A DNA stretch of 64,000 nucleotides from Escherichia phage MIZ4. Location: sequence record OR167180; one strand, written 5' to 3'. Positions 118 to 46,413 of this stretch are shown piece after piece. A program made the translations under genes and the position numbers. Position 1 is the first letter of the stretch, and the number at the start of each line of letters is the position of its first letter. The notes under the pieces were generated by a model, which had not been told where the DNA came from, did no database searches, and worked only from the letters and a program-made list of their open reading frames with translations.

Positions 118-2886
118 ATGGCAGATTTAAACAGAATCCAGTTTAAACGCACTAGCGCAGCCGGACGTAAACCGGATGCTGGTACGATGAATCCGGGAGA
201 GTTGGCAATTAACTTAGCAGACCAATATCTGCTTACAAAAAATGATGGTGGGCAAATTGTTAATTTAAGTTGCCCACCAGTTTATGACAAGAGCGTTAAT
301 GTAAAAGGTCGTGTGGTTGCAGATGACCTTATGTGGAGTAATACCGCAAACTATTTCGATGACCCAACCGCACGAAATCTTGATAAATTTGGGGCATTTC
401 GTACTAATGATATGGATGGTCATCTAGCACTTGCTTTGCATATTCCCCATCCTAGCGGTATAAATCATGCTCGTGGGTTTGATTTTACTTATGGTTCTAA
501 CGTTGTTCCTACTGTAAAAACCTATGGTTATAACGCTGATGGTGTATTGGCATATTCATATCGCATGTATCACGAAGGTGATAAGCCTAGTCCGTCAGAA
601 TTAAATGTGTACAGCAAACAAGAAGTAGATCGGATGTTCCAGAAGACACTTGATTTTGGAATTGAGTCCGGTTGGTTTAAAATCGCTACAGTATATCTAC
701 CACAACAATATGGGCGTAGTGCTAAAATTAGATTGGTTGGTGGTAATGGTTATAATGTAGGACAGACCGGGCAAGCTAATATTATTGAATTGGTTCTGCG
801 TAGCGGGAATGGAAATCCGGTTGGTGTTGTGTTTAACGCTTATATGACCATCTGGTATATAGACCAGAAGTTTTGTGCTATTCCTACTGGTGGTGACTCT
901 TATGATATATACGGTAGCTATTCCGGTCATAGTGGATTTGTGTTGGCTGAATACCAGACTAGCCCTGATGTTAACCTGACTTTATATGATAAACCACAAT
1001 TTATAGGAAGTCAATTACCGGAAGCTGAAACAAAGTTCGATGCTTATACAATCACTTCATTTAGTAATTATCGCAACCGCGGGACATTAAATTTTGGTGC
1101 TAATTCTCAAGGCCAATATGACATTGAGCATTTGAACGAACAACCGACAAATGCTAAAAAGATGTTGCGTCGCTTCCGTAGTTGTGCTCCTGCCACTATC
1201 TGGCATGAGACAGTTGATGATAACTCATATCGTCTTGCTACTGGATACGAAGATACAAATCAGGAATTATTGCTTTCGGCTGTAACCGGGTTACATGTCA
1301 AGAGATTAACATTGGATGGCGGTGTTGGTAATGCCGGTATTGACATTCGTCGAGGACCAAACGAAGCAAGCCATTTTAATTTCATGGACTATCGCACTGG
1401 ACAAGATGTTCGTAATGGCTGGTTTGGCTTCGGTGATGGTCAGACCAAAGATTTTATTTGGTGGAACGATAACGGTCAAAACTCGATAAACCTGATTGAA
1501 GATGGTGAATTGCATATTACTGGAGGTAAAGGGCAGAAAATTGTAATGAATAGCGAAGTTGCATTATCCGAAAATGCTCGTTTGGCTGTCAAAGGCGGTA
1601 ACTATGGTTTGATTTTACGCAATGATGGTTCTGGTTTCCATATTCTTACTACCAACTTAAAAGATTCTTTTGGTAGTTGGAATAATCGCAGACCATTCAG
1701 TTATGATTTTGCGGACGGTGGATTATATTTAGGTGGTACTGAAACCGCTCGTTGTTTGCATCTTGGAATTGATGGTAGCACTCGTCTTGAAGACAACCTG
1801 TTCTTTAAAGCTGGTTCTCGTCAATCTATGGACTATATGGAACTCGTCCATTGGGGGGCAAGCAATACAGGTCGAAATAACGTTTTAAGTCTTCGTGACT
1901 CAAAAGGATTTTTAGCAGAATTTGAACGATTGGGTGATAATACCATTAAAAACACCTTCTTCGGGAAACTGAAAGTTAATCGTGGTTCTGACGCTATTAC
2001 CATTAATGCCGAAACGGGAGATTCGTCGGTATATTTGTTGGGTACGTGTGCCGATAATAACAACTGGTATATCGGTAAAGGTGGTGCGGATAATGGATTA
2101 GCGTTCTATAGTTATGCTACTAATGCTGCTGTAAACATTACAAACGGAGGGGATATCGCACTAAGTCCAAAAGGCATCGAAATGACTCATGTCAATAACG
2201 TTCGATTCTATGTTCATGGTGAACGTTGGACTGCTAGCCAATCTGGAGGTTGGAACGACCAATGGGGATTAGAAGCGCCGATATTTGTTGACCACGGCTA
2301 TGTTGGACCAGACAGTTATTATCCGATTATCAAAGGAAGAAGTTTAATCACCAATCAAGGATATACAACTGCCGTTGATCTTGGTATTCGTCGTGTCCCT
2401 AACAATTGGGGGCAAGCAATTATTCGTGTTGGATCTGCGGAGGCATCGCCAGCGGCTGGTCACCCTCAAGCTGTATTCGAGTTCCATCATGATGGTACTT
2501 TCTATTCTCCTGGTAATGGTAACTTTAACGATGTTTATATTCGTTCTGATGATCGTCTTAAGATTAATAAAGAAGAGTTAGAATATGGAGCACTTGAAAA
2601 AGTATGCCGTCTGAAAGTTTATACTTACGATAAAGTTAAGTCTATTAAAGACCGTAGTGTTATTAAACGTGAAGCTGGTATTATTGCTCAGGATCTTGAA
2701 AAAGAACTACCGGAAGCTGTATCTAAAGTTGAAGTTGATGGATCTGATGTTCTGACAATTTCTAACTCGGCAGTGAATGCTCTTTTAATTAAGGCTATTC
2801 AGGAAATGAGTGAAGAAATTAAAGAATTGAAAACTCCTTTCTTTACTAAAATTGCTCGCAAAATTAGTAAATATTTTAAATTCTAA
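118..2886 (+). CDS. 37: Long tail fiber distal subunit gp37 with C-terminal intramolecular chaperone-like (S74-type) segment
   Basis: N-terminus MADLNRIQFKRTSAAGRKPD..GELAINL matches the conserved gp37 N-terminus (T4 MATLKQIQFKRSK..GELAINL); 922 aa; C-terminal ~110 aa SDDRLK..AIQEMSEEIKELK resembles auto-cleaving chaperone domains; AAGGA SD before ATG. Confidence 0.9.
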   Translation: MADLNRIQFKRTSAAGRKPDAGTMNPGELAINLADQYLLTKNDGGQIVNLSCPPVYDKSVNVKGRVVADDLMWSNTANYFDDPTARNLDKFGAFRTNDMDGHLALALHIPHPSGINHARGFDFTYGSNVVPTVKTYGYNADGVLAYSYRMYHEGDKPSPSELNVYSKQEVDRMFQKTLDFGIESGWFKIATVYLPQQYGRSAKIRLVGGNGYNVGQTGQANIIELVLRSGNGNPVGVVFNAYMTIWYIDQKFCAIPTGGDSYDIYGSYSGHSGFVLAEYQTSPDVNLTLYDKPQFIGSQLPEAETKFDAYTITSFSNYRNRGTLNFGANSQGQYDIEHLNEQPTNAKKMLRRFRSCAPATIWHETVDDNSYRLATGYEDTNQELLLSAVTGLHVKRLTLDGGVGNAGIDIRRGPNEASHFNFMDYRTGQDVRNGWFGFGDGQTKDFIWWNDNGQNSINLIEDGELHITGGKGQKIVMNSEVALSENARLAVKGGNYGLILRNDGSGFHILTTNLKDSFGSWNNRRPFSYDFADGGLYLGGTETARCLHLGIDGSTRLEDNLFFKAGSRQSMDYMELVHWGASNTGRNNVLSLRDSKGFLAEFERLGDNTIKNTFFGKLKVNRGSDAITINAETGDSSVYLLGTCADNNNWYIGKGGADNGLAFYSYATNAAVNITNGGDIALSPKGIEMTHVNNVRFYVHGERWTASQSGGWNDQWGLEAPIFVDHGYVGPDSYYPIIKGRSLITNQGYTTAVDLGIRRVPNNWGQAIIRVGSAEASPAAGHPQAVFEFHHDGTFYSPGNGNFNDVYIRSDDRLKINKEELEYGALEKVCRLKVYTYDKVKSIKDRSVIKREAGIIAQDLEKELPEAVSKVEVDGSDVLTISNSAVNALLIKAIQEMSEEIKELKTPFFTKIARKISKYFKF

Positions 2887-2890
2887 CAAC

Positions 2891-2910
2891 AAGGGGGCAA
2901 CGCCCCCTTT
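2891..2910 (+). other. GC-rich stem-loop in the 37-38 intercistronic region
   Basis: aaggggg-caacg-ccccctt inverted repeat immediately before the gp38 SD. Confidence 0.4.
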
Positions 2911-2922
2911 GGAGTATAAATT

Positions 2923-3705
2923 ATGGCAGTAGTTGGTGTTCCTGGTTGGATTGGAAGTTCAGCCGCAAATGAAACAGGGCAACGATGGATGAGTCAAGCG
3001 GCTGGTCAACTAAGATTGGGTGTTCCTTGCTGGATGAGTCAATTTTCAGGTCGCTCGCGAGAAATTATTCATACACTTGGTGCAGACCATAACTTCAATG
3101 GTCAGTGGTTCCGTGATAGATGCTTTGAGGCAGGTAGTACACCTATAGTGTTTAATATTACAGGTGATTTAGTATCATATTCTAAAGATGTTCCTTTATT
3201 CTTCATGTACGGGGATACACCAAATGAATATGTTCAGTTGAATATACATGGCGTAACGATGTATGGTCGTGGCGGGAATGGCGGTAGCAATGGTCCTGGA
3301 TCAGCCGGGGGGCATTGTATTCAAAATGATATTGGTGGGAGGCTAAGAATTAATAATGGCGGTGCTATCGCTGGCGGCGGTGGCGGTGGCGGTGGCGGGT
3401 ATTATTCTCCTTTTTCACAAATGAGATTAACCTTTGGCGGTGGCGGTGGGCGTCCGTTTGGTGCGCCCGGCGGATCTATTGATATGCAATCAGGCGCAAC
3501 TGCTGGTACTCTTTATGCGCCCGGATCGGGGTCCGTGAACGGTATCTATAATGGCGGAAGCGGTGGTGAGGTAGGCGCCGCAGGAGGTAGATGTAATATT
3601 CGTGGTCAAGGATCTGAATATAATGGCGGCGATTCTGGATATGCTGTTATAGGGTCTTCTCCAACGTGGCAAAATCGCGGAGCTATTTACGGACCGGCTG
3701 TTTAG
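2923..3705 (+). CDS. 38: Long tail fiber tip adhesin gp38 (T2/T6-type with glycine-rich motifs)
   Basis: 260 aa; conserved N-terminal gp37-binding region [13 protein letters not shown]..; multiple poly-Gly motifs ([24 protein letters not shown]) separating short variable segments; located directly after gene 37. Confidence 0.85.
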
Positions 3706-3769
3706 ATGTAATTATAAAAAGAATTAAGGAAAACTCCCACGGAAGGGGAACTACTAAGGAGAAACGGCT

Positions 3770-4009
3770 ATGGTCTATAATATCGTCATTGGTGCTTTGT
3801 CTAATTTCGGAATGAAACTATTGTCAAAGTTAATTAGTGAAAAGATGCTCACTAAAATTTTCTTCTATTGCGCTCGTCGTCTTGCGGCTTATACCAATAC
3901 GCCAATTGATGATCGTTTTGTGGAAGAACTTTATAAGGAGTTTAATAAAGATCAGTCAGAAGATAGTAACGAGCAAGATAAACCTAGTGATAGTCAAGTA
4001 CCTAAATAA
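3770..4009 (+). CDS. Hypothetical small protein (hydrophobic N-terminus, acidic C-terminus)
   Basis: 79-aa ORF with strong SD (AAGGAG) 7 nt upstream; same strand as 38 and t. Confidence 0.45.
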   Translation: MVYNIVIGALSNFGMKLLSKLISEKMLTKIFFYCARRLAAYTNTPIDDRFVEELYKEFNKDQSEDSNEQDKPSDSQVPK

Positions 4010-4042
4010 GAGTACACTGTCATAGTTATCTTAGGGCATTAT

Positions 4043-4699
4043 ATGCAAGTTTCTGAAAAAGGGAAAGACTTTGCTATCTCAAATGTCCTGCGCGCTATTT
4101 TCACAACTAAAAGCACGGAGTTGCTCGTACTTCGTGTTTTTGCTGCCGTCGTGTTGTCCATATTAGCATTTGTCGTTTATAGTAAAAACGAGTTATTTGC
4201 GCTTTATAAAGAGACTCGTTATGAGACTTATGCTCACGTTCTCCAGGTAGAGAAAGACCGCAATTTTGATAATGCAGCACAGGAGCAGTTACAGATAGTT
4301 CATGTGTCGGCTGATGCCGATTTTTCTGCTGTTTTTAGTTTTCGTCCGAAAAACCTAAACTATTTTGTTGATTTGGTGGCATATGAAGGAAAGTTACCGC
4401 ATACAATCGATGAAAAAAATTTAGGCGGATTCCCTATCAATAAAACGAGTGAAGAATATCGTAGGCATCTTTTAGGTAAATCCTATTTTACCGATAAAGA
4501 TTTCCAGTATATTCCATCAAGAGAAAAGAAATTAGAGAGTATCGATATAGGGGTTATGTATTCTTGTCCTATATTCAATCTCGACAATGTCTATTCTGGT
4601 AGTATCTCCATTGCATGGAAGAATAAACCGGATATTGACATTGAGAATTTAGATACTCTTTGCAATCAATCTGCCAGAATCCTCGGAAGGATTAGATAA
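4043..4699 (+). CDS. t: Holin (lysis protein T)
   Basis: 218 aa, same length as T4 holin T; shared blocks ..ETYAHVL..EQLQIVHVSADADFSAVFSFRPKNLNYFVDLVAYEGKLP..MYSCPIFNLDNVY..ARILGR; N-terminal TM segment; position after 38. Confidence 0.9.
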   Translation: MQVSEKGKDFAISNVLRAIFTTKSTELLVLRVFAAVVLSILAFVVYSKNELFALYKETRYETYAHVLQVEKDRNFDNAAQEQLQIVHVSADADFSAVFSFRPKNLNYFVDLVAYEGKLPHTIDEKNLGGFPINKTSEEYRRHLLGKSYFTDKDFQYIPSREKKLESIDIGVMYSCPIFNLDNVYSGSISIAWKNKPDIDIENLDTLCNQSARILGRIR

Positions 4700-29460: not shown

Positions 29461-30937
29461 TTAAATGTCAAACAGGTCAGTCAGAGATGCCACTTTTTCA
29501 TATTGCAGCTTTGCAGCCGTGGTAATGTTCTCCAGTGGTTTGACGAAAGTCTTATTAAACAACAAAGGCCAGTCCAACCACTTCAACACCTCTGATTCAA
29601 TTTCTGGCGGAATACGAGTACCAGACAACCAACCAAAACAGATTTCACCAAACGGATTTCGATCTTTCAGCGGTACAATCATAACCTTCTCGCCCTCACG
29701 AATCGGATCTAGTCCGAATTTTCGAGCATTACGATTATAACACAATACACTCTTAACCGCATACGGACAACCCTTAATCGGATACCCGTTTGAATCGCTG
29801 TATTTCTGTAGGTTGTTTGCAGATGATACCGCAGCAACATCAAGATAGTCAAGTTTTCTAAATTCTTGCTCAAAAATACCGTAGTATTCCTGCAATGAAT
29901 CTTCACCTTCCTGCAACATACGGCGAATACATTCTTTCAGTGATTTCTGACATGCTTTAGGGGTGGAGCTACGTTGCGTTTCCAAGCCCATGATTTTTAG
30001 CTTAGGTTCAGCAAAGCGCGTTCCTTCCATATCCCAAACATTAAGAGCATACCGCTTTTTACCAGTCCAGAATCCACCGATACCCGCAGATTTCAACGGA
30101 GGACCAGCAATTGCCTCTCGGTCCATAAACATCAAGTGCTCATAGTTGTTCATGTACTCGCATAACTCGCGATATCCCTTGTCGATAATAGGTTCCATTC
30201 GATGTTTACCGAAATTATCAAGGAAGTCAACAAGTTTTTCGGTATCGTCGAAACGGTCTTCCCCGCCAACCTTATCAATAACATTGTTAACCAGCACATA
30301 AACGGAGTCAGTATCACAATAACGAACATATGCAAAATCAGTCGTTCCGCAAAGCTCGTTTAAGTATTCGTTAATCTTACGCTCAATCCACTGAATTGCA
30401 AGCTGACCGAACAGTGTGATCGCACTAGCGTTACGGAGATCATAAAAACGGAATTTAGGATTCCCCAACGCACCATAAAGGGAGTTGATCAAAACTTTTC
30501 GAGAAAGCTGGTTTGTATTGCACAAGATCGACTCGTCTTTACATTCTTCCAGCAATTTCTCTAAGGCATCTTTACTTAATTCAGAAAGCATCGATTTAAA
30601 CGCTTCATCAAAGTCGTGACGCACTTCAACGCTATAGCTAATGGTTCCCCCATAAACATGATTTTCATCGTGTAGAATCGCTTTACATAGTTCAGCATTG
30701 CGATCACATGCCAACATCATGTTTTTGTACTGCTTACGCTGATCGAATACCTTTTTAATCTCAATCGGTACGATACCATGAATATCTTTTCGATACATCC
30801 ATCCGTTAGGCGAGCAAGAATACTCATCACTAGGACGCGGTGCAGTTTTATTGATATACTCGTGCATCGGTGCAGCATCAAAAGATCCAGCGATTGTTTC
30901 AGGCGAAATATTAACCTGACGGATGATTGATGGATAC
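29461..30937 (-). CDS. 43: DNA polymerase gp43, exon 2 (palm C-terminal part, fingers and thumb)
   Basis: Contains family-B motif B KVLINSLYGALGN and motif C YCDTDSVY; reading frame continues upstream of the annotated ATG through YPSIIRQVNISPETIAGSFDAAP to the intron 3' end. Confidence 0.85.
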
Positions 30938-32051
30938 CATTATGTTCAGCGCGGTTCGCTACTCCCGCGCCCGTTCTCTTGCGAACTGCTACATGTCACC
31001 ATGTAGATCAGACTATATCACATTCTCATAGAGAATCCTGCCATTTCGAATCGCTTGATTCTACTCTACTCGGTTCGTTACCCTTTCGATAGTCGTTGAA
31101 CAACTGCATCTTTAAGCTCATTTTGATCAAACGGTGTTCTCTTACAGTACCCGCTATAATTCTTGGCAAAAGGTTTCTTCTTACCAAAGATCTCTTTTCC
31201 TGAATTATGTGCTTCAACAAGAAAATTCACCATTTCATCAAATGTGAAACTTGTAAATTTAGCATAAGTTTCATTACGTTTTGACATTATTTTACTCATA
31301 ACTTCCGGTCGTTTAGACGCTGAATTTTCGCGCTTCTCGCCAGCATTAAATGATACTAACTCACCGGAAACATATCTAGGATCATCACAACTAACTCTAA
31401 ACCGATTTCCTTCCTTATCCTTAACGATAACAGTATTCTTTAGCTTTTCTGCCATAGAATCAAGACCTTTTCGTATAGTGTCCTCATCAGCCCCGAAATA
31501 TTTCTTTCCGCTCATATCGGTTCTGGCTTTTCCGGTCTTGTTTTCGGATATTTTCAGTCTAACTTCCTCTCGCTTGGCTGGGTTATTGTCTCCAGCGAAT
31601 GCATCTTTGGTTAACGCCTTCACTTTATCGTCATAAGATCCTCTAGAGATGAAAGCATATGCTCTCTTGCATTCACCGTTATTGAATATTAAGCACAATA
31701 ACCGATGCGCCTCGACGTGGTCTTCAAACTTAAGCCTAACAAGATTCCATTTATCTAACCGATATTCAGGGAACATTGACTTCGGGCATATATGATGCAC
31801 CTCGGAATATTCTTCACCCTGATACGGATTAGACACCAGTTTAATGTAGTCGTTTAATGCTTCCTCGTTATGTATTTCGTACTTTCTTAAAATGTCTTTC
31901 ATCTCGCGCCTCCAATGTATATCAATATTTATATACATTATAAGACACGTTAGCTCAAAATGCAACTGCTGCTGATTGTCTCCTTAGAGATTTCCCAGCA
32001 ATTAAGCAGGTTATTCGATCACTGTCACCAGTGAAAGCCCCATATCAGTTT
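30938..32051 (-). mobile_element. Group I self-splicing intron (td-like) interrupting gene 43 in motif A, carrying an HNH homing endonuclease gene
   Basis: Exon junction restores DLTSL|YPSIIRQ; intron ends ..GATATAGTCTG..CATGGTGACATG..CTGAACATAATG (resembles the T4 td intron 3' terminus as recalled); 5' part contains GACAATC-type core element; 5' exon ends in T, intron ends in G. Confidence 0.75.
31078..31902 (-). CDS. Intron-encoded HNH homing endonuclease
   Basis: HNH motif ..EVHHICPKS..EDHVEAHRLL; start set at ATG with GGAGG SD (ORF track uses upstream TTG); TATAAATA late-promoter-like element upstream inside the intron. Confidence 0.7.
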   Translation of the reverse strand: MKDILRKYEIHNEEALNDYIKLVSNPYQGEEYSEVHHICPKSMFPEYRLDKWNLVRLKFEDHVEAHRLLCLIFNNGECKRAYAFISRGSYDDKVKALTKDAFAGDNNPAKREEVRLKISENKTGKARTDMSGKKYFGADEDTIRKGLDSMAEKLKNTVIVKDKEGNRFRVSCDDPRYVSGELVSFNAGEKRENSASKRPEVMSKIMSKRNETYAKFTSFTFDEMVNFLVEAHNSGKEIFGKKKPFAKNYSGYCKRTPFDQNELKDAVVQRLSKG

Positions 32052-33253
32052 AGGGAAGTAAGGTCAAAGCTCATCATCCAACGGTAAGCATTCGGCACAG
32101 GTTCTTTTACGAATGCGCCAGGATAAGTCTGCTTAGGCTGTATCTTGTTCTCCGGTACTACTTTACCCTCAGCTTTCAGAGATCCGAAGATAATAGCATC
32201 CCATACTTTCATCGGGTTATAAACATGGTTAAATTTAATCTTTGCATAGAAACATAGGCTATACACCAGATCGATAAATCCACGCTTTTTATCAATCGCC
32301 AGCACACGGTCAACGTCGCCGATGTTATAATCTATGTAAAGTTGATGGTTATCATCACGCAATTTCTTTAACGGACCATCATAATCAACCTTACCGATTC
32401 CTGTCTCATATTCAGCAACATAATCTAACGCATATGTTGGTTGAGTCGTAAAGCTAAATTTCTTGTACAGGTCAATATAATCAAGGCTTTCGATCCCCAT
32501 GATCGTAAATGCTTCACGCTCGTTGCCAAAATCATCCTGTGAGATTCGGGATTTAATCTTACCGCACGGGCTTAGACGGTTAGCGGTTCTACTTCCGAAC
32601 TTATTACTGATACGTTTAATGATATATGGAATATCGAATGTTTCTGTGTTCCAGCCAGTGAAACCAACGGGTCGGTTTTCCTCAAAGAATCGGATGTATT
32701 CTAACAGCAATTCATCTTCTGTGTCATAGACGTTATAAACAACGCGCTCTACAATATCAGGTCGAAGAATAGACTTGCTTGCTTCCCAGATTTCACCGCT
32801 TTTTCCTTTCAAATCAAATACAAAGAAACGATCATGTACGGAATCATAATGCGTAATTGCATCGATAGGATATTTCGCTTCTTCTGGTTTAGGAAATTCC
32901 GGTGCAGTGACCTCGATATCAACCCATGCTACACGGATTTTATTTCGGTCATATCGAATCTCGCCTTTATATGTATCGGACAGATAGGAGATGATAAAAT
33001 CATCCATCCCTAGTGCCTCCTGCCCCATTTCTCCCATCTTTTTACGCCATTTGTTGGCCTCGTTCATAGATGGGAATTTTTTAGCAATGCAAGGCTTGCC
33101 ATAGATATCTTTATAATTCGTAACCATACCAGGCGCGGCATGATGAAATAAAGTTGGCGTATATTCAACGTAACGCTCTTGTTCTTGTCCAGCATCATCA
33201 ATATAACGCTCGTAGATCTTATCACCCACTCGCTCACATGACAGAAAATACAT
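32052..33253 (-). CDS. 43: DNA polymerase gp43, exon 1 (N-terminal and 3'-5' exonuclease domains to motif A)
   Basis: Block similarity to T4 gp43 N-terminus (ERYID, FPSMNEA, DIEVT, YDSVHDRF, GWN.E.FDIPY, YNIGDV, SFDLTSL); start set at ATG 33253 with GAAGGAG SD. Confidence 0.85.
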
Positions 33254-38968: not shown

Positions 38969-39561
38969 TTTAGTTTATGTTCCTCTAAAAATTCTTCAAT
39001 TTCACCTTGCAGGTCTTCCGCTTGTTGTTCCAGAATATCGCGAAATTCACCTACAGTCAAGCGGTAATCACACTTCACTAGTCGATGCGGGAGAATATAC
39101 CCTTTATACATTGTCTCTGACGCTTCCAGGAATACCCCACTATGCATGACAGAGATCCAACCTGTTAGCGTCAATGGAGTATTCGGAAAATAATACTTGC
39201 TGGATTGTTTCCACTGGACGAAAGCACCATATACAATCGGATTATATTCACCAACCACACTCTTAATAATGGATTCTACTTTGTCTTTTACAAAGTCGCC
39301 AATGCCCATAGTCACCATCAACTCTTGTGGGTGAATCACTTTAAGGTAACGACGGTAGCCGTCATCATACCACAGCTTAACCACTGGCTGACCCCACATT
39401 TTAGCAATACGCGCTTTCAGATAACCATAGATCGGATTCTTGTAATATGATTGTTTTAGTGTGTATGCGTGCACCAATTCAATAAAATATTCCATTGCTA
39501 TCGAATCAGGATCAGCCGCGACCATAGTCGTATTCATAATATGTTCCTCGTTCAATTTCAT
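38965..39561 (-). CDS. Hypothetical protein (198 aa; start uncertain)
   Basis: ORF between 46 and 47; N-terminus overlaps the next ORF. Confidence 0.45.
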   Translation of the reverse strand: MKLNEEHIMNTTMVAADPDSIAMEYFIELVHAYTLKQSYYKNPIYGYLKARIAKMWGQPVVKLWYDDGYRRYLKVIHPQELMVTMGIGDFVKDKVESIIKSVVGEYNPIVYGAFVQWKQSSKYYFPNTPLTLTGWISVMHSGVFLEASETMYKGYILPHRLVKCDYRLTVGEFRDILEQQAEDLQGEIEEFLEEHKLK

Positions 39562-39829
39562 ATTGTTTCAGGTCTTCTAAAAGTTCATCCACTGCTTGTT
39601 TCAGTGTATGACGCAGCGTAAAGTAATAGCTTTCATCAAATTCTATTTCCGCGCGAGGAATAGAGCGAATCTTACACTTAACAGTAGTATCGGTGAGTCG
39701 CTTTTCGACCATCATCCGAACTTCTTCATGCTCTTTGGAATACCATACATCAACGGAGATTCCCTTACGGCGAGCGAACATAGGCAACGCTGCATTAAAT
39801 TCCATTACTTTTTGTGCAAGTGTTTTCAT
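39512..39829 (-). CDS. Hypothetical protein (105 aa)
   Basis: ORF between 46 and 47. Confidence 0.4.
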   Translation of the reverse strand: MKTLAQKVMEFNAALPMFARRKGISVDVWYSKEHEEVRMMVEKRLTDTTVKCKIRSIPRAEIEFDESYYFTLRHTLKQAVDELLEDLKQYEIERGTYYEYDYGRG

Positions 39830-40131: not shown

Positions 40132-41166
40132 CTAACTTTTTGCGCTATTTACTTCGGCTAAAAGTTCATCAGAAATACGCTTGACCGCCGCAAGTTCTTC
40201 CGGTTCTAGGTTTTGTTCTTCCAGATATTCATAGACCATCTGAATAGTGCTTTTAACTTCAATAACACCTGTTTCCTGTGATGCGCTACTCTCCAGCTTA
40301 TGGACCACTTTTAGCTTGTGTACAACGGCCTCTAACGCGCTTTCTAACTTAGTTAACCCATTATCAGCGACCGTTGCGATAAGACGCACACTAAGCCCCT
40401 TAAAGCGTTCTACATCGATTTTATCATCTGACGGGTAAGTGATACGCACATGATAAGTTTTGTCATTCTGGATAAACTCTTTTTTGTGTGTATCGGTATC
40501 GAATACCCAAAACCCACGCGGATCGTTTTCGTCACCCGCCGTTAGTGTGTATGGTGTACCTATATACGTTACGTTACCGCCATCACTGATAGTATGAAAG
40601 TGACCCGAAAACACTTCACGGTATTTCTTTAGGAAGTCCGCGCTATAACCTTCGGATTTTAGCCCTTTATAGAAATAGTAACCGGACAATTCCCAATGGC
40701 CTACACAATATTCGCTGAATGAGTTTTGAATAAACTCTAAAATCTCTGATTTATTGTCATCACAAAACCACGGGAACAGATCAAATGATACACCATCAAA
40801 GGTGACTGTTTCCGGCTTATCAATAACCTTAATGCAATCATACTGGCTTAACACTTCACGCGGTGCGTTAGGCTGGATCTTGTTTCGTTTAAACATATCA
40901 TGATTCCCAACCGTGATATAACAAGTAATACCAGCCTCTTCCAGTAGCGGGATGATTTTCGTTCTATTAAAACGCATAGTTGCATGTGTGATTGCTTTTC
41001 GGCAATCAAACCAGTCCCCTGTCTGAATCCATGCCTTAATATTATGTTTTTTTGAATAATCGACTGCCTTTTTAATAGTATCAAGAATATACTCATGTAT
41101 CCACGGATCATCGTTGCCGATACCAGTATGCAGATCACCCAAAAGCAAAATTTTCATATTATACAT
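40132..41166 (-). CDS. 47: Recombination endonuclease subunit gp47 (Mre11/SbcD-like phosphoesterase)
   Basis: Metallophosphatase motifs LLGDLH, GDWFD, GNHD; blocks shared with T4 gp47 (GHWEL.G, SGHFHTIS, TAGDENDPRGFW). Confidence 0.9.
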   Translation of the reverse strand: MYNMKILLLGDLHTGIGNDDPWIHEYILDTIKKAVDYSKKHNIKAWIQTGDWFDCRKAITHATMRFNRTKIIPLLEEAGITCYITVGNHDMFKRNKIQPNAPREVLSQYDCIKVIDKPETVTFDGVSFDLFPWFCDDNKSEILEFIQNSFSEYCVGHWELSGYYFYKGLKSEGYSADFLKKYREVFSGHFHTISDGGNVTYIGTPYTLTAGDENDPRGFWVFDTDTHKKEFIQNDKTYHVRITYPSDDKIDVERFKGLSVRLIATVADNGLTKLESALEAVVHKLKVVHKLESSASQETGVIEVKSTIQMVYEYLEEQNLEPEELAAVKRISDELLAEVNSAKS

Positions 41167-41172
41167 AATCTC

Positions 41173-41727
41173 CTAAAAATTTTTAACACCATATTCACCA
41201 AAATAAAGATCAACCGCTTTGTCATAAGCTCTGGCCGCATCTTCTTCGTTGACATAATACCCAAGAGATATTAGTTTATCATTATTTCGTATTCTTGCAA
41301 CCCATTTCTTCGTATGTTTATGCCAGCTAACCCCTTTATACTTGCTTGCTTTATTCTTGTACTTTCCAACGTTACAAGCATTTTTCTTTGCGTCGGACTC
41401 TCTAAGATTGCGTGGTGCGTTGTTTAAAGGATTTCGGTCTATATGATCTATAATTTCTGGTTGTGTTCCATGCTCAAGAAACCATACAATACGATGTACA
41501 TATGGCTTTAAAACCCTCCCATTATCCATAACAATTGCAATTTGGAGATGATCCTGACTTTTAAAAGTTTTTACTTTATCTCCTGCCTTATAAAACTTTC
41601 CTTCGTAATTCTTTCCTCCGGCTCGGCTATTCTTTAAATGATAAAGAATACCATCGTCGTCATGTCTATATCTTTCTCGTATAATTCGTTGCGTTTCTTC
41701 ATCCCACAATTTGGAACGTCTACTCAT
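41173..41727 (-). CDS. HNH homing endonuclease with AP2 DNA-binding domain
   Basis: HNH core HRIVWFLEHG..IDHIDRNPLNN..N; C-terminal AP2-like YKGVSWHKHTKKWVARIRN..LGYYVNEEDAARAYD; sits where T4 has alpha-gt. Confidence 0.7.
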   Translation of the reverse strand: MSRRSKLWDEETQRIIRERYRHDDDGILYHLKNSRAGGKNYEGKFYKAGDKVKTFKSQDHLQIAIVMDNGRVLKPYVHRIVWFLEHGTQPEIIDHIDRNPLNNAPRNLRESDAKKNACNVGKYKNKASKYKGVSWHKHTKKWVARIRNNDKLISLGYYVNEEDAARAYDKAVDLYFGEYGVKNF

Positions 41728-41770
41728 AGTCTCTTCCTCTCTTCGTTTTCGATGCTCTCACTATATCACA

Positions 41771-41794
41771 GAAAAATAAAAAGGGAAACCCCTT
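41771..41794 (-). terminator. Terminator-like hairpin (AAGGG-AAAC-CCCTT) with T-run on the minus strand
   Basis: Inverted repeat and flanking A/T-run read in sequence. Confidence 0.35.
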
Positions 41795-41817
41795 TCAGAG
41801 TCTCCCTTATAAAGCCA

Positions 41818-42105
41818 TTACAGCATACTTAATACCGTTTGCCGTGTACTAATCCACATAGCAGAAAGCAGTTCTGGTGTGTGTGGCTGTTTGTAGATAT
41901 CACGTAATTTTCCGATAGCGTAGATATACGCATCACGATTATCATCGATGATAGCTTGCTCAGCCCACCGCTTAAGTCGTGCAATCTCTCGCGAGTTCTT
42001 ACGCAAGATCTTTTCCGCTTTCTTAGCGGCTTTAGCCTCTAGTTCTGCTTGTACTTTGTCTACTTCATTCACTGCAATCTTGTCATGCTGTTCATTGCAA
42101 GTCAT
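41818..42105 (-). CDS. Hypothetical protein (95 aa)
   Basis: ORF downstream of 55. Confidence 0.45.
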   Translation of the reverse strand: MTCNEQHDKIAVNEVDKVQAELEAKAAKKAEKILRKNSREIARLKRWAEQAIIDDNRDAYIYAIGKLRDIYKQPHTPELLSAMWISTRQTVLSML

Positions 42106-42106
42106 A

Positions 42107-42340
42107 TTATTTTACCTCTGGGATATAATCAATTATTAAAGAAAATTCATCTTCTGATACATTATAGCTATGTGAGATTGTACCCGTCAAGACCTCAAGA
42201 TCCGGTGATTTGATATTGCACGGATCGATAATCACCGGAACGCCGCAATCTCTCAAAAATAATTTGGCGAAATACGGCACAAGGTCAGTTTCAAACTCTG
42301 CTTCTTCCAGCAAACGGGAAATGTTAATTTTCAATCTCAT
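42107..42340 (-). CDS. Hypothetical protein (77 aa)
   Basis: ORF downstream of 55. Confidence 0.4.
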
Positions 42341-42857
42341 AAAATTGGTCCAGGCTAGGCAATTCCTCGGTCAATACATCTTCAACCTTTGGCGCTTTCG
42401 GTTTATTGACCGATTCCTCGTAGTTGTTGATTTTATCGTAAATGTCCTGTATGAATGCCTCATCAGCAATCTGGCACATATCAGCGTCGCGTTCGTCATA
42501 TACATGATGCACAAAATATTTGTATTTTGCGGCTGTCGCTGTTCTTTCTTTTTTAATGCGCTGCACAAAAGCATTAAAGCACGCTTGCGTGATGTAAGCA
42601 TGAGGATTTTTATACTTTGTCTCGTCAAAATTAATCAAACCCTTGACCGCCGCTTCGATTCCATCGTCGATCATTTCTTCGCGCCATGTTTGACTATAGC
42701 CAGAAAAGTTAAAACGCCGTGATAGATTTTTAGAGATTTGCATAATTGCCAGGCCGATTTGGTCACTCATTGGCACTTGCCGACCTTCTGCTGCAATTCG
42801 TTGTTTCCAACGGCAAATTTCTTCGTAAAGCTCTTTATTGTTTACATAATCAGACAC
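42324..42857 (-). CDS. 55: Late sigma factor gp55
   Basis: 177 aa; long near-identical block to T4 gp55 ([57 protein letters not shown]). Confidence 0.95.
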
Positions 42858-42897: not shown

Positions 42898-44367
42898 CTA
42901 TTCCCCATTACCATTATACTTTCTTTGCTTAGTTATCCACACTCTAACCATCTCTACTGATTCACCGTCAGAGGGATCAAGAGTTTTTCCTTTTTTCTTC
43001 ATGCGGTACTTAAATCCGTTAAATCTTGCATTCTCTTGCTCGTTAAAGTCGAACATCTTTTTAAATGATTTTCTCCCTTTACGCTCACCGCATTCTAGCG
43101 GAATCATTCGGTCTGTTATTACATTGGCATTAGGTAGAAACGTTTTTAGATAATCTACCAACGCCCAATCAGGAACATATAGATTAACATTCTCCTTGCT
43201 CTCGTTGTCTCTCAGGTTACAACGCAAACATAATTGAAATGCTGGTTCCAGATAATCAGACACATGACGCGCTTTCAAAAACTCATTTGTCGGGAGATCA
43301 CAACTATTAGCAAGACCTTTTAAAATATCAATCTCCCATCGTTGAGGGTTAAAGCTGAACATCACAGCAACATTTTTATGATGAATGTAAGAGTTAAGAC
43401 CATAAGATCCGTAAGGTATCCGCTCACCAATACCATTTGTACACGCTTCACGGTCCCGATTCACGGTATAAATGAAGTCATCACCACATTCATTTTTAAC
43501 CATATCAACCAGACGTTCAAAGGTATTGTTTGTTTCTGACTGGTGACGCGACCATCGTTCGGAGTCCGTCATAAGGATGATGTTAACTCTATCTGTATTT
43601 TTATACTCTTTGAAATATAGTCTGGATTCTAGCGCACTCGGAACAAAATCGCAATTTGCATAGTATCGTAGATACTTCCCACTATATGTATCAAAGAGAT
43701 TTGCACATGCTATCGTAACCTTTTTAAAGTCTCCCCACGTACCGTGTTTGTTATCGTTCAAGAAAACAATTTTCGACCCATTCTTCCGGTGGCCTTCGTT
43801 ATGTTTTACCATAACGTTGATTTTCTTCTCTAATAACGCCTCATAAAGCCCTCTAAGAGAAGAATCGATCATATCAGTACCATCCTTTGCACTTTCTATC
43901 TTTTCTTTGATAGCGGCCTTCTCAGAGTCTTTTAGAACTAAGTTCTGTAGGCATTCCGATTCGTCGGCGATTGGTTCGCAATGCTTCGTGATAAGTTCAA
44001 GATTAGACTTAAACGGATACTCATTAAATTCAACCAGTTGAGGAACTTCATCAATGTAAAGAGCATAATCACCAAACATTTTTGAACGTTCCATATTAGA
44101 TAACGCTGTATGTGTAATGAATATCACATCAGCACCATCTTTAACTGATTGCATTATCGACGCTTGCACTGTCTTAAGGCTTCTTAGTCTTGTGCTATCA
44201 ATCAAGACAGCACGACCGCCCATTCTTTTAAACTTATTGTAAGATTGTTCACTTAAAACACGAGATGGCGAAGCAATAACCGCTTTTTCTTTTGTCTCTA
44301 GGACGTGGGAAAGTATAGCATCAGTTTTCCCCGCCGCTGGCAATGCGATTAATGTTTCAATCTTCAT
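42898..44367 (-). CDS. P-loop NTPase / helicase-like protein of unknown function (489 aa)
   Basis: Walker A-like ALPAAGKT at residues 8-15, Walker B-like LYIDEV ~100 aa downstream; Cys/His-rich basic C-terminal half; no confident family assignment. Confidence 0.55.
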   Translation of the reverse strand: MKIETLIALPAAGKTDAILSHVLETKEKAVIASPSRVLSEQSYNKFKRMGGRAVLIDSTRLRSLKTVQASIMQSVKDGADVIFITHTALSNMERSKMFGDYALYIDEVPQLVEFNEYPFKSNLELITKHCEPIADESECLQNLVLKDSEKAAIKEKIESAKDGTDMIDSSLRGLYEALLEKKINVMVKHNEGHRKNGSKIVFLNDNKHGTWGDFKKVTIACANLFDTYSGKYLRYYANCDFVPSALESRLYFKEYKNTDRVNIILMTDSERWSRHQSETNNTFERLVDMVKNECGDDFIYTVNRDREACTNGIGERIPYGSYGLNSYIHHKNVAVMFSFNPQRWEIDILKGLANSCDLPTNEFLKARHVSDYLEPAFQLCLRCNLRDNESKENVNLYVPDWALVDYLKTFLPNANVITDRMIPLECGERKGRKSFKKMFDFNEQENARFNGFKYRMKKKGKTLDPSDGESVEMVRVWITKQRKYNGNGE

Positions 44368-45093: not shown

Positions 45094-45611
45094 TTCTCAG
45101 CCTTTAATCTTTCTAGTTCTTCTTCCAGTTCCTTGATCCGTTGGTCACGTTCAAAGTCACGCTGCAACTTAGTGGCGAATACTCGTTTAAACTGATTGTA
45201 ATCATCGATTTTAAACACTTCTTCTTCGCCATAGCGACGCACAGAAACTTCGTAGTTGTTGAAAAATTGTTCCAACATTGCATCAGTAGTCAGTTCTGAC
45301 GACACCACTTTAAAATAACGTTCTTCGGATTGCAAAAACCAGTTGTGCGCGTATTCCCGTACATCATCAACATCTCGACAGGTGTATGTTTTTCCATCAA
45401 TTTCAATCGCAGAAACATATTCGATATCTGATGCAATTTTTTCAAAAGCGATAACTTTAAATGTACGGTCACCGATAAAGTCTGCTATTGCATCATTTGC
45501 AACACTGGTTGCAAAGGCTTTCCGCGCTCGCTCGTTTTTCCACTGATAGGTCATACCAACAACAAACATATTACCATCAACAAACATATTACCATCCTCG
45601 CTCTTTACCAA
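45090..45611 (-). CDS. Paralog family A member (173 aa; true start possibly internal)
   Basis: N-terminal G(K/M)TY.WK motif; DGNMFV repeat from an 18-bp tandem duplication; C-terminal coiled coil. Confidence 0.45.
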   Translation of the reverse strand: MVKSEDGNMFVDGNMFVVGMTYQWKNERARKAFATSVANDAIADFIGDRTFKVIAFEKIASDIEYVSAIEIDGKTYTCRDVDDVREYAHNWFLQSEERYFKVVSSELTTDAMLEQFFNNYEVSVRRYGEEEVFKIDDYNQFKRVFATKLQRDFERDQRIKELEEELERLKAEK

Positions 45612-46413
45612 TCAAAAATTCAACTTCACGACGTTTAATGTCTTCTTGAAGGTCTTTAATCTTCTGGCGATCTTGCATTATTTCGTCCATCTTGTCAAGT
45701 GCTGCGATGAAATCATCGAAACGTTCAAAGGTTTTACCTTCATTTGCTTCGCCAAATTTAACCATTGTCAGGCCGTAACGACTACTAAACAGACGTTTCA
45801 ACTGTCCAACGATTTTAGAATCAGTGGTTATAACTTCCAATTCTTCTACTTCACGAAAGAATTTTCTATCAGAATCAATAAACCAGCTAGTTCCTTTATG
45901 GTTGCTATCTTCGGTTGCACTCATTAGAGTATGGTCTTTACCATCAATTTCAATTACATCAATTTGCCCACATGGACGAACATTTTTAACAGTAAAAGGT
46001 CTATAATTTATTGCTCGTGCAATAACATAATTAAGATTAGATACGTTTTCAGCATAATGGCAGAAGTCGGTCATAGCATTCACGTCTTTCCAAGTATAAG
46101 TTTTACCAACTTCCCATTTCTGGGGAACTTCTTCAACTTCACGAAAGAATTTTCTATCGAATGGACTAAAGAAATATGTTGCAGTCCAAATGTCTTTTCC
46201 TGTAGCAGTTTTCGCCGTATGATAAACACCGTCTAGCTCTATTGCATTAATCCAACCGTTGCCATCGATCTCGATGATGGTAAATGGCTTGTCACCAATA
46301 GCTGCACTAATATCGCTGTTAAGTGGAGAAAGAACACCTTCTCCGTTAGTAATAAACTCAGTTTTAGCGTTTACATCTTTCCAAGTGTAAGTTTTACCAA
46401 TTTCCCATTTCAT
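45589..46413 (-). CDS. Paralog family A member with internal domain duplication (274 aa)
   Basis: Two copies of KWE.GKTYTWKDVNA..DRKFFREVEE module. Confidence 0.5.
   Translation of the reverse strand: MKWEIGKTYTWKDVNAKTEFITNGEGVLSPLNSDISAAIGDKPFTIIEIDGNGWINAIELDGVYHTAKTATGKDIWTATYFFSPFDRKFFREVEEVPQKWEVGKTYTWKDVNAMTDFCHYAENVSNLNYVIARAINYRPFTVKNVRPCGQIDVIEIDGKDHTLMSATEDSNHKGTSWFIDSDRKFFREVEELEVITTDSKIVGQLKRLFSSRYGLTMVKFGEANEGKTFERFDDFIAALDKMDEIMQDRQKIKDLQEDIKRREVEFLIGKERGW

Follow-up and report, generated by a model that had tools for sequence, protein, structure and literature searches.

The seg and mob genes of phage T4 lie in intergenic positions, occur sporadically in close relatives and stand beside conserved essential genes. 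The target of such an endonuclease is expected in the neighbouring gene, and the flanking markers are expected to be co-converted. The endonuclease I-HmuI of the Bacillus phage SPO1, for which a structure is available (1U3E), is a nicking enzyme; it is encoded in a group I intron and carries helical and helix-turn-helix modules at its C-terminus. Endonucleases with an HNH and an AP2 domain from Trichodesmium erythraeum, Tetrahymena thermophila and phage Felix 01 were reportedly described in 2004 by Magnani et al. and by Wuitschick et al. The closest described gene is RB49ORF040c of phage RB49, which GenBank has contained since 2003 and which papers have covered since 2004-2006. The GenBank entry describes it as 'putative endonuclease; similar to HNH endonuclease; DNA-binding AP2 domain', and it has been listed among the 'Putative mobile DNA elements' of RB49 on the basis of AP2 and HNH Pfam matches (Nolan 2006, PMC1524935). 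The number of HNH-AP2 homing endonuclease genes is given as one in RB49 and none in phi1 (Petrov 2010, PMC2993671, Table 5). In PMC4237383 the RB49 protein is presented as one of the founding examples of the HNH-AP2 class, with reference to Magnani et al. 2004.

The open reading frame (ORF) examined here is located in a window of 64,000 nucleotides, by which we mean the whole stretch of DNA that was analysed. Over a region of 2.8 kb around the ORF the window shows 100% identity with Escherichia phage MIZ5 (OR167181.1), which belongs to Krischvirus, the RB49-like phages among the Straboviridae. Coordinates are given for the window and correspond to the coordinates of record OR167181.1 minus 64000. 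Over the same region the identity is 98.5% with Shigella phage JK32 and 98.0% with RB49. According to the ORF listing, the reading frame comprises 184 codons plus the stop codon and extends from ATG to TAG. The encoded protein shares 100% identity with its JK32 counterpart and 98.9% with RB49ORF040c (AAQ15315.1). The latter has the same length of 184 aa and occupies the same place between gene 47 and a-gt.4, whereas the surrounding genome backgrounds of the two copies are different mosaics. The gene is annotated as 'HNH endonuclease' in the MIZ5 record and as 'homing endonuclease' in the JK32 record. Both the gene and its architecture have thus been published before, and their identification is of little importance beyond correct annotation. 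Our literature search found neither a biochemical or genetic test of this ORF nor a phage HNH-AP2 enzyme whose target had been mapped. The ORF and its two domains are positioned as follows.

41173 to 41727, minus strand: HNH-AP2 endonuclease ORF, ortholog of RB49ORF040c (Pfam, phrog_99, RB49 annotation)
41377 to 41502, minus strand: HNH_3 catalytic core, aa 76-117, with H78, D94, H95, N107 and, at its end, N116 (Pfam)
41176 to 41346, minus strand: predicted AP2/ERF-type DNA-binding domain, aa 128-184 (Pfam AP2, structure matches)

An earlier note, made from the sequence of the window, had claimed that the protein combines an HNH core with a C-terminal AP2 domain, and this was borne out. The strings it quoted are found in the translation, and the profile search which had been set beforehand as the refuting test matched both domains. 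Pfam HNH_3 (PF13392) matches aa 76-117 with 44.7 bits (curated cut-off 24.8, E 1e-11), and Pfam AP2 (PF00847) matches aa 128-171 with 41.0 bits (curated cut-off 33.3, E 2.4e-10). The PHROG family phrog_99, 'HNH endonuclease', matches the ORF at E 1.4e-50. Using phmmer, the AP2 region alone already matches the structure of the plant protein WRI1 (7WQ5) at 9.1e-10 and also that of TEM1 (7ET4). For the profile searches we used an alignment of the 184-aa protein with four relatives (five sequences), which are 27-47% identical to it. This profile matches 7WQ5 at 1.1e-18 and, in addition, TEM1 (7ET4), ERF096 (5WX9) and AtERF1 (2GCC, 1GCC). It further matches the I-HmuI structure 1U3E with E 3.2e-12 over I-HmuI residues 18-102, with D94, H95, N107 and N116 aligned in register with D74, H75, N87 and N96 of I-HmuI. 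These four residues and H78 are invariant in the five sequences. The identities of the HNH and the AP2 domain are settled by these profile matches to solved structures.

An AP2 domain is expected to fold into a three-stranded beta-sheet packed on one alpha-helix. The single-sequence AlphaFold2 model of the protein is of low confidence (mean pLDDT 41) and leaves the HNH region unstructured; in the AP2 region (pLDDT <55) it places strands at 133-138, 141-148 and 151-158, followed by a helix at 161-176, in the order expected of such a domain. The ORF product belongs to the same HNH_3 family as I-HmuI, and its N-terminal beta-rich region and HNH domain are homologous to those of I-HmuI. It differs from I-HmuI in being free-standing and in carrying an AP2 domain at the C-terminus. 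The enzymes of T. erythraeum, T. thermophila and Felix 01 are reported to show the same order of HNH and then AP2, but come from other hosts and other genomic contexts.

The gene is free-standing and lies outside any intron. A tblastn search of the window for further copies returned the ORF itself, all remaining matches having E values above 2. Another ORF annotated as a nuclease is situated at 31078-31902 within a split DNA polymerase gene, in agreement with the earlier note, which had counted the present gene as a second mobile nuclease besides the intron-borne one. Among the 58 Krischvirus records that match the region, the ORF is present in four (MIZ5, JK32 and two records of RB49). The site is empty in the other 54, and in all megablast matches listed the gap has the same size. 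Being sporadic and outside an intron, the gene stands as the free-standing homing endonuclease candidate that had been proposed.

The comparison of the 47-55 interval with phages lacking the insert, which had likewise been proposed, defined the boundaries of the insert. Aligned with Phi1 and RB49, the window shows a clean addition of 570 bp; the flanks are otherwise collinear and no flanking sequence is lost. The G+C content of the insert is 35.6% compared to about 40.5% in the flanks. The sequence ATGA (TCAT on the plus strand) occurs at both junctions of the insert and once in the empty site, and because of this repeat the boundary is ambiguous by 4 nt. The insertion point coincides exactly with the gene 47 start codon; gene 47 encodes the SbcD/Mre11-like subunit of a recombination nuclease. 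The following features are found at the junctions.

41154 to 41723 (equally 41158 to 41727), no strand assigned: 570-bp insert (alignment of the window with Phi1 and RB49)
40132 to 41157 (or 41166), minus strand: gene 47, SbcD/Mre11-like recombination nuclease subunit (Pfam Metallophos, phrog_100, RB49/Phi1 annotation)
41728 to 41745, minus strand: original ribosome-binding region of gene 47, GAGAGGAAGAGACT (same sequence directly 5' of the gene 47 ATG in Phi1)
41158 to 41174, minus strand: replacement translation-initiation region of gene 47 (direct reading; missing in Phi1)

On the coding (minus) strand of Phi1 the sequence GAGAGGAAGAGACT-ATG-AAA-ATT-TTG constitutes the ribosome-binding site and the start of gene 47. 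In the window the identical ribosome-binding site is followed by ATG-AGT-AGA-CGT..., which is the start of the nuclease gene. From the stop codon of the nuclease onward the sequence reads TAG-GAG-ATT-ATG-TAT-AAT-ATG-AAA-ATT-TTG. An AGGAG supplied by the insert overlaps this stop codon and is followed by ATTATGTATAAT and then by the gene 47 ATG at 41157. It lies 12 nt 5' of the conserved MKILLLGD start and 3 nt 5' of an upstream in-frame ATG. The records disagree on the start of gene 47, whose product is given 341 aa in RB49 but 344 aa in both MIZ5 and JK32. Direct comparison of the sequences shows that the old ribosome-binding site and ATG of gene 47 now precede and begin the nuclease gene and that the insert carries new ones; the nuclease gene has therefore captured both the start codon of gene 47 and its translation-initiation region. 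Translation of the nuclease would begin from the original signals, and the last 15-17 nt of the insert, with the new AGGAG and ATG, would keep the essential recombination gene 47 expressed. The position of the junction on the start codon with a 4-bp ATGA repeat, together with the takeover and replacement of the ribosome-binding site, is a modest addition to what was known of this gene.

We also searched for signals of transcription and for RNA structure around the ORF. One feature was found upstream of the nuclease gene.

41781 to 41808, minus strand: intrinsic terminator hairpin 3' of a-gt.4 (terminator scan, RNA fold)

The terminator is a strong one, with a predicted stem of 12 bp. The terminator is common to genomes with and without the insert and is annotated in the records of G2248 and GEC-3S. 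Besides this upstream terminator, no RNA hairpin was found that would mask either ribosome-binding site, that of the nuclease gene or that of gene 47 (z-scores -1.6 and +0.9). The T4-type late promoter TATAAATA does not occur near the ORF; the window contains only two copies, both elsewhere. A promoter-like sequence with 10 of 12 matches (41186-41158, minus strand) ends at the gene 47 ATG and would leave no leader; it is regarded as a chance match in AT-rich DNA.

A second difference between genomes with and without the insert was found within gene 47. We aligned 8.2-8.8 kb around the site from 12 genomes, three with and nine without the insert. Carriers and non-carriers are fixed for different bases at 15 columns, and all 15 are situated within a single short stretch, 38-110 bp from the insertion point.

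41047 to 41116, minus strand: recoded 70-bp stretch, gene 47 codons 14-37 (12-genome alignment, blastn)

In an interval of 80 bp around the fixed columns the three carriers are identical to each other, and each differs from every non-carrier at 15-17 positions. When positions 41030-41157 were compared by blastn with all phage records, the four carrier records matched with at least 99% identity and all 54 others with 82-87.5%. The linkage of the insert and the recoded stretch is complete across the 58 GenBank phage records on which this test is based. The substitutions, which are mostly silent or conservative, form two clusters (41098-41116 and 41047-41077). In the first, GGT-GGC is changed to GGC-AAC and GTG to ATA; in the second, 10 of 11 consecutive codons are changed, eight of them by silent third-position substitutions. 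The fixed replacements in gp47 are G15N, V20I, E33D and E37K, and residue 42 is A in the carriers and V or T elsewhere. The 37-41 bp that separate the recoded stretch from the insert are identical in carriers and non-carriers, which is not how a simple, uninterrupted tract co-converted from an evenly divergent donor would look.

AP2 domains belong to a family that binds GC-rich boxes. The substitutions of the carrier allele mostly lower the G+C content and remove GGTGGCG and GTGGGTGC motifs. Their loss would fit an escape from AP2 binding and is put forward as a lead. From its position and its linkage to the insert, the stretch 41047-41116 probably holds a target or immunity site and/or is a co-conversion tract. 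With 70 bp it exceeds the footprint of a monomer, so that the whole stretch cannot be the target site. Because it is 70 bp long and discontinuous, it probably combines resistance changes that were selected with sequence co-converted from a donor. The more specific proposal that the stretch is a natural immunity allele that pinpoints the recognition site of the HNH-AP2 endonuclease is a tentative one, to which we would give slightly less than an even chance. As to a donor of the recoded stretch, a blastn search in distant mode matched only Krischvirus records, none of them intermediate. IMG/VR contained no exact match to the carrier-type allele of gene 47 and one ORF relative, which is 42% identical, and a 27-mer of the carrier-type allele had no match in metagenome contigs.

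Outside the tract formed by the insert and the recoded stretch, the carriers do not stand closest to one another. On the right-hand side of the insert, RB49 and the non-carriers differ at 7-10 sites, but RB49 and the carriers MIZ5 and JK32 at 26-31 sites. MIZ5 and JK32 in turn share an identical tract, beyond which they are about 1.7% divergent.

40948 to 41877, no strand assigned: 930-bp tract identical in MIZ5 and JK32, holding the insert and the recoded stretch (pairwise difference positions)

The sporadic presence of the gene, the linked divergent allele and the varied backgrounds together form the pattern that would be expected of a free-standing homing endonuclease gene. The pattern does not prove homing, because general recombination could yield the mosaicism. 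The carriers represent three independent phages out of about 55, and therefore the gene is not sweeping through the genus.

The best explanation of these results is that the MIZ5 ORF, orthologous to RB49ORF040c, is an intact free-standing gene for a homing endonuclease of the HNH-AP2 class, with a putative role in homing; we assign to this reading a probability of roughly 0.8. We infer homing, cleavage and the position of the target from the sequence comparisons. The N-terminal and central part of the enzyme is I-HmuI-like: a beta-rich region for contact with DNA precedes the one HNH motif, with the predicted catalytic residues D94, H95, N107 and N116. The AP2 domain would take the place of the helix-turn-helix module by which I-HmuI recognizes its sequence. 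In a mixed infection with an insert-less Krischvirus, the enzyme would bind the 5' end of the insert-less gene 47 allele, where the AP2 domain and the I-HmuI-like N-terminal region would position the single HNH site, and would nick or cut the DNA. With one HNH active site in 184 aa, the enzyme may only nick, like I-HmuI, the nearest relative with a solved structure. Recombination-dependent repair would then copy the nuclease gene and the adjacent resistant allele from the co-infecting carrier, which itself would be protected by the recoded stretch at 41047-41116.

Three other explanations were considered. The rarity of the gene (4 of 58 records), the lack of an evident promoter together with a terminator just upstream, the absence of activity data from the literature search and the fact that mosaic flanks are possible through the rampant general recombination of T4-like phages would all be compatible with a relic, a homing endonuclease gone inactive or in decay, passed on by vertical inheritance or by ordinary homologous recombination and cutting nothing. 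We nevertheless consider such a relic improbable: the ORF is full length and keeps all four of the residues equivalent to the catalytic residues of I-HmuI, it is placed on a strong and formerly functional ribosome-binding site, and the copies of phages isolated in three places are 98.9-100% identical in protein. Between RB49 and MIZ5 the nuclease genes differ by six synonymous changes and two conservative replacement changes (D25E and I80V). It is still harder to see the ORF as a domesticated nuclease or DNA-binding protein from which the phage benefits, either by cutting gene 47 of its competitors or by transcription regulation through the AP2 domain, and we regard this as very improbable. 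The target inferred here does lie within an essential recombination gene of the competitors, AP2 domains are those of plant transcription factors, and the nuclease took over the translation signals of gene 47, so that its expression would be coupled to that gene; but marker exclusion, known as a side effect of homing, is no alternative to it, and 54 of the 58 relatives manage without the gene. A weak PADLOC match to a generic 'homing endonuclease' model may be counted in its favour; no other defence-system model matched, and an NCBIfam search with the 184-aa protein returned no family.

The third explanation, that the endonuclease gene replaced alpha-gt, the gene for alpha-glucosyltransferase, and that the insertion event removed it, has practically no probability left. 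It goes back to the earlier note, according to which the ORF occupies the position of alpha-gt and alpha-gt synteny was lost along with its insertion. Genes 47 and 55 of T4 have between them 47.1, alpha-gt, mobB, a-gt.2, a-gt.3, a-gt.4 and a-gt.5. In the window the ORF has gene 47 on one side and a-gt.4, a-gt.5 and gene 55 (together 41818-42857) on the other, and the insert is indeed situated in an interval topologically equivalent to that from gene 47 to a-gt.4 of T4. We inspected nine Krischviruses lacking the insert (Phi1, G2248, ECD7, MIZ6, AV108, kvi, GEC-3S, TB34 and KFS-EC). In these genomes gene 47 is followed by a spacer of only 90 bp containing the terminator and then by a-gt.4, a-gt.5 and gene 55; alpha-gt is missing from all nine, and these empty sites refute a replacement. 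The 570 bp were added cleanly at the start codon of gene 47 and the insert displaced nothing. Since the insert-less relatives are also devoid of alpha-gt, the absence of this gene is a lineage trait, older than the insert and independent of it. In line with this, alpha-gt has been reported from 'T-even type phages only', and gene 42, coding for dCMP hydroxymethylase, is likewise missing from phages of the RB49 type (Petrov 2010, PMC2993671, Table 4). The supposed link of the missing alpha-gt with the insert is wrong, and its correction is a further modest addition.

The ORF has relatives in similar surroundings. Two genes annotated as 'putative homing endonuclease RB16 1' and 'RB16 2' and a gene of the Slopekvirus Matisse share the domain layout of the ORF at 27-47% identity. 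They too are situated within the gene 46/47 cluster, but upstream and downstream of gene 46 instead of on the gene 47 start; in RB16 the two HNH-AP2 genes bracket gene 46. Judged by their divergence, these genes are too distant from the ORF for a recent transfer of the same element. The next-closest proteins in the phage collection are only 45-52% identical to the ORF product; among them are HNH-AP2 proteins encoded at other Krischvirus loci and others whose genes adjoin gene 46 or 47 in RB16 and Klebsiella Slopekvirus phages. Evidently, the HNH-AP2 family recurs in the recombination-nuclease cluster at differing insertion points. The seg and mob genes of T4 share the lifestyle of the ORF, and mobB is situated in the same 47-55 interval; their DNA-binding module differs. 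Kinship with T4 mobB was considered and rejected, the two showing no sequence similarity (best BLASTP E 5).

The linked 70-bp stretch provides a concrete and testable candidate for a target or immunity site, which is again a modest addition. If the stretch is indeed the immunity allele, MIZ6 or Phi1 on the one hand and MIZ5 on the other would constitute a ready pair of sensitive and resistant substrates. It would also mean that a homing endonuclease targets an Mre11-like nuclease gene, needed for double-strand-break repair, and at the same time re-wires its translation start. The carrier MIZ5 and the non-carriers MIZ2, MIZ3 and MIZ6 have been deposited as phages of Escherichia coli B, MIZ6 on 'E. 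coli Bbest', and these carriers and non-carriers on E. coli B form a convenient natural set in which the function of an HNH-AP2 endonuclease from a phage could be tested for the first time.

The insert, the 570-bp HNH-AP2 endonuclease gene, ends at the start of gene 47, which codes for the SbcD/Mre11-like recombination nuclease subunit. Two features are situated at this junction.

41155-41166, minus strand: start of gene 47, disputed between records
41158-41186, minus strand: sigma-70-like promoter match, TTAAAA-17 nt-TATAAT (10/12)

In the MIZ5 and JK32 records gene 47 is annotated with 344 aa and begins with the ATG at 41166, 3 nt past AGGAG, the replacement ribosome-binding site carried by the insert. 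The RB49 record gives 341 aa and the ATG at 41157, 12 nt past AGGAG; this codon is the gene 47 start conserved in the genomes without the insert. The spacing between AGGAG and ATG is optimal for neither start codon, and therefore translation of gp47 may be altered by the insert. The sigma-70-like match lies at the insert's 3' end and stops exactly at the gene 47 ATG. Since no leader would be left before this ATG and the DNA is AT-rich, the match is probably due to chance and was not considered a real promoter. In Escherichia phage TB34, which lacks the insert, gene 47 is annotated as two overlapping CDS (3032-3409 and 3310-4056, own coordinates), for which a frameshift or an error in sequencing may be responsible.

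HNH-AP2 genes were also found in the gene 46/47 cluster of other phages (own coordinates).

RB16, 781-3570: two HNH-AP2 genes flanking gene 46, both overlapping a terminus of that gene
Klebsiella phage Matisse, 3067-3549: one HNH-AP2 gene directly after gene 46

The gene 46/47 cluster is a recurrent landing place of the HNH-AP2 family.

The earlier note had also mentioned an intron-borne homing endonuclease gene, which corresponds to an ORF within the split DNA polymerase gene.

29461-33253, minus strand: split DNA polymerase gene
31078-31902, minus strand: ORF of 274 aa between the two parts of this gene
31926-31933, minus strand: exact T4-type late-promoter motif (TATAAATA)

The position of the ORF in the split gene was confirmed. 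It is labelled 'HNH endonuclease' in the MIZ5 record, and a Pfam search with the 274-aa product gave no match at 1e-3. As to the intron, Rfam Intron_gpI matched 30989-31249 with E 3.4e-6 but only below threshold (32.8 bits, gathering score 50), and the intron is a plausible but weak proposal. The late-promoter motif, one of just two exact copies in the 64-kb window, is located 24 nt upstream of the ORF, which suggests that this endonuclease may be expressed late.

Across the 8.8-kb region around the insertion site, the nine Krischvirus genomes without the insert show 34-68 variable sites per 200 bp in 39300-39700 and 45100-45700, compared with a background of about 2-19. These hypervariable stretches overlap ORF036/037 and ORF048/049. 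A further ORF is found in the vicinity.

42898-44367, minus strand: ORF of 489 aa, RB49ORF044c family, phrog_2467

This ORF, which has a marginal DEAD-box helicase match (27.3 bits, cut-off 26), adjoins gene 55 on the upstream side in transcription order; T4 has the small gene 55.1 in this place.
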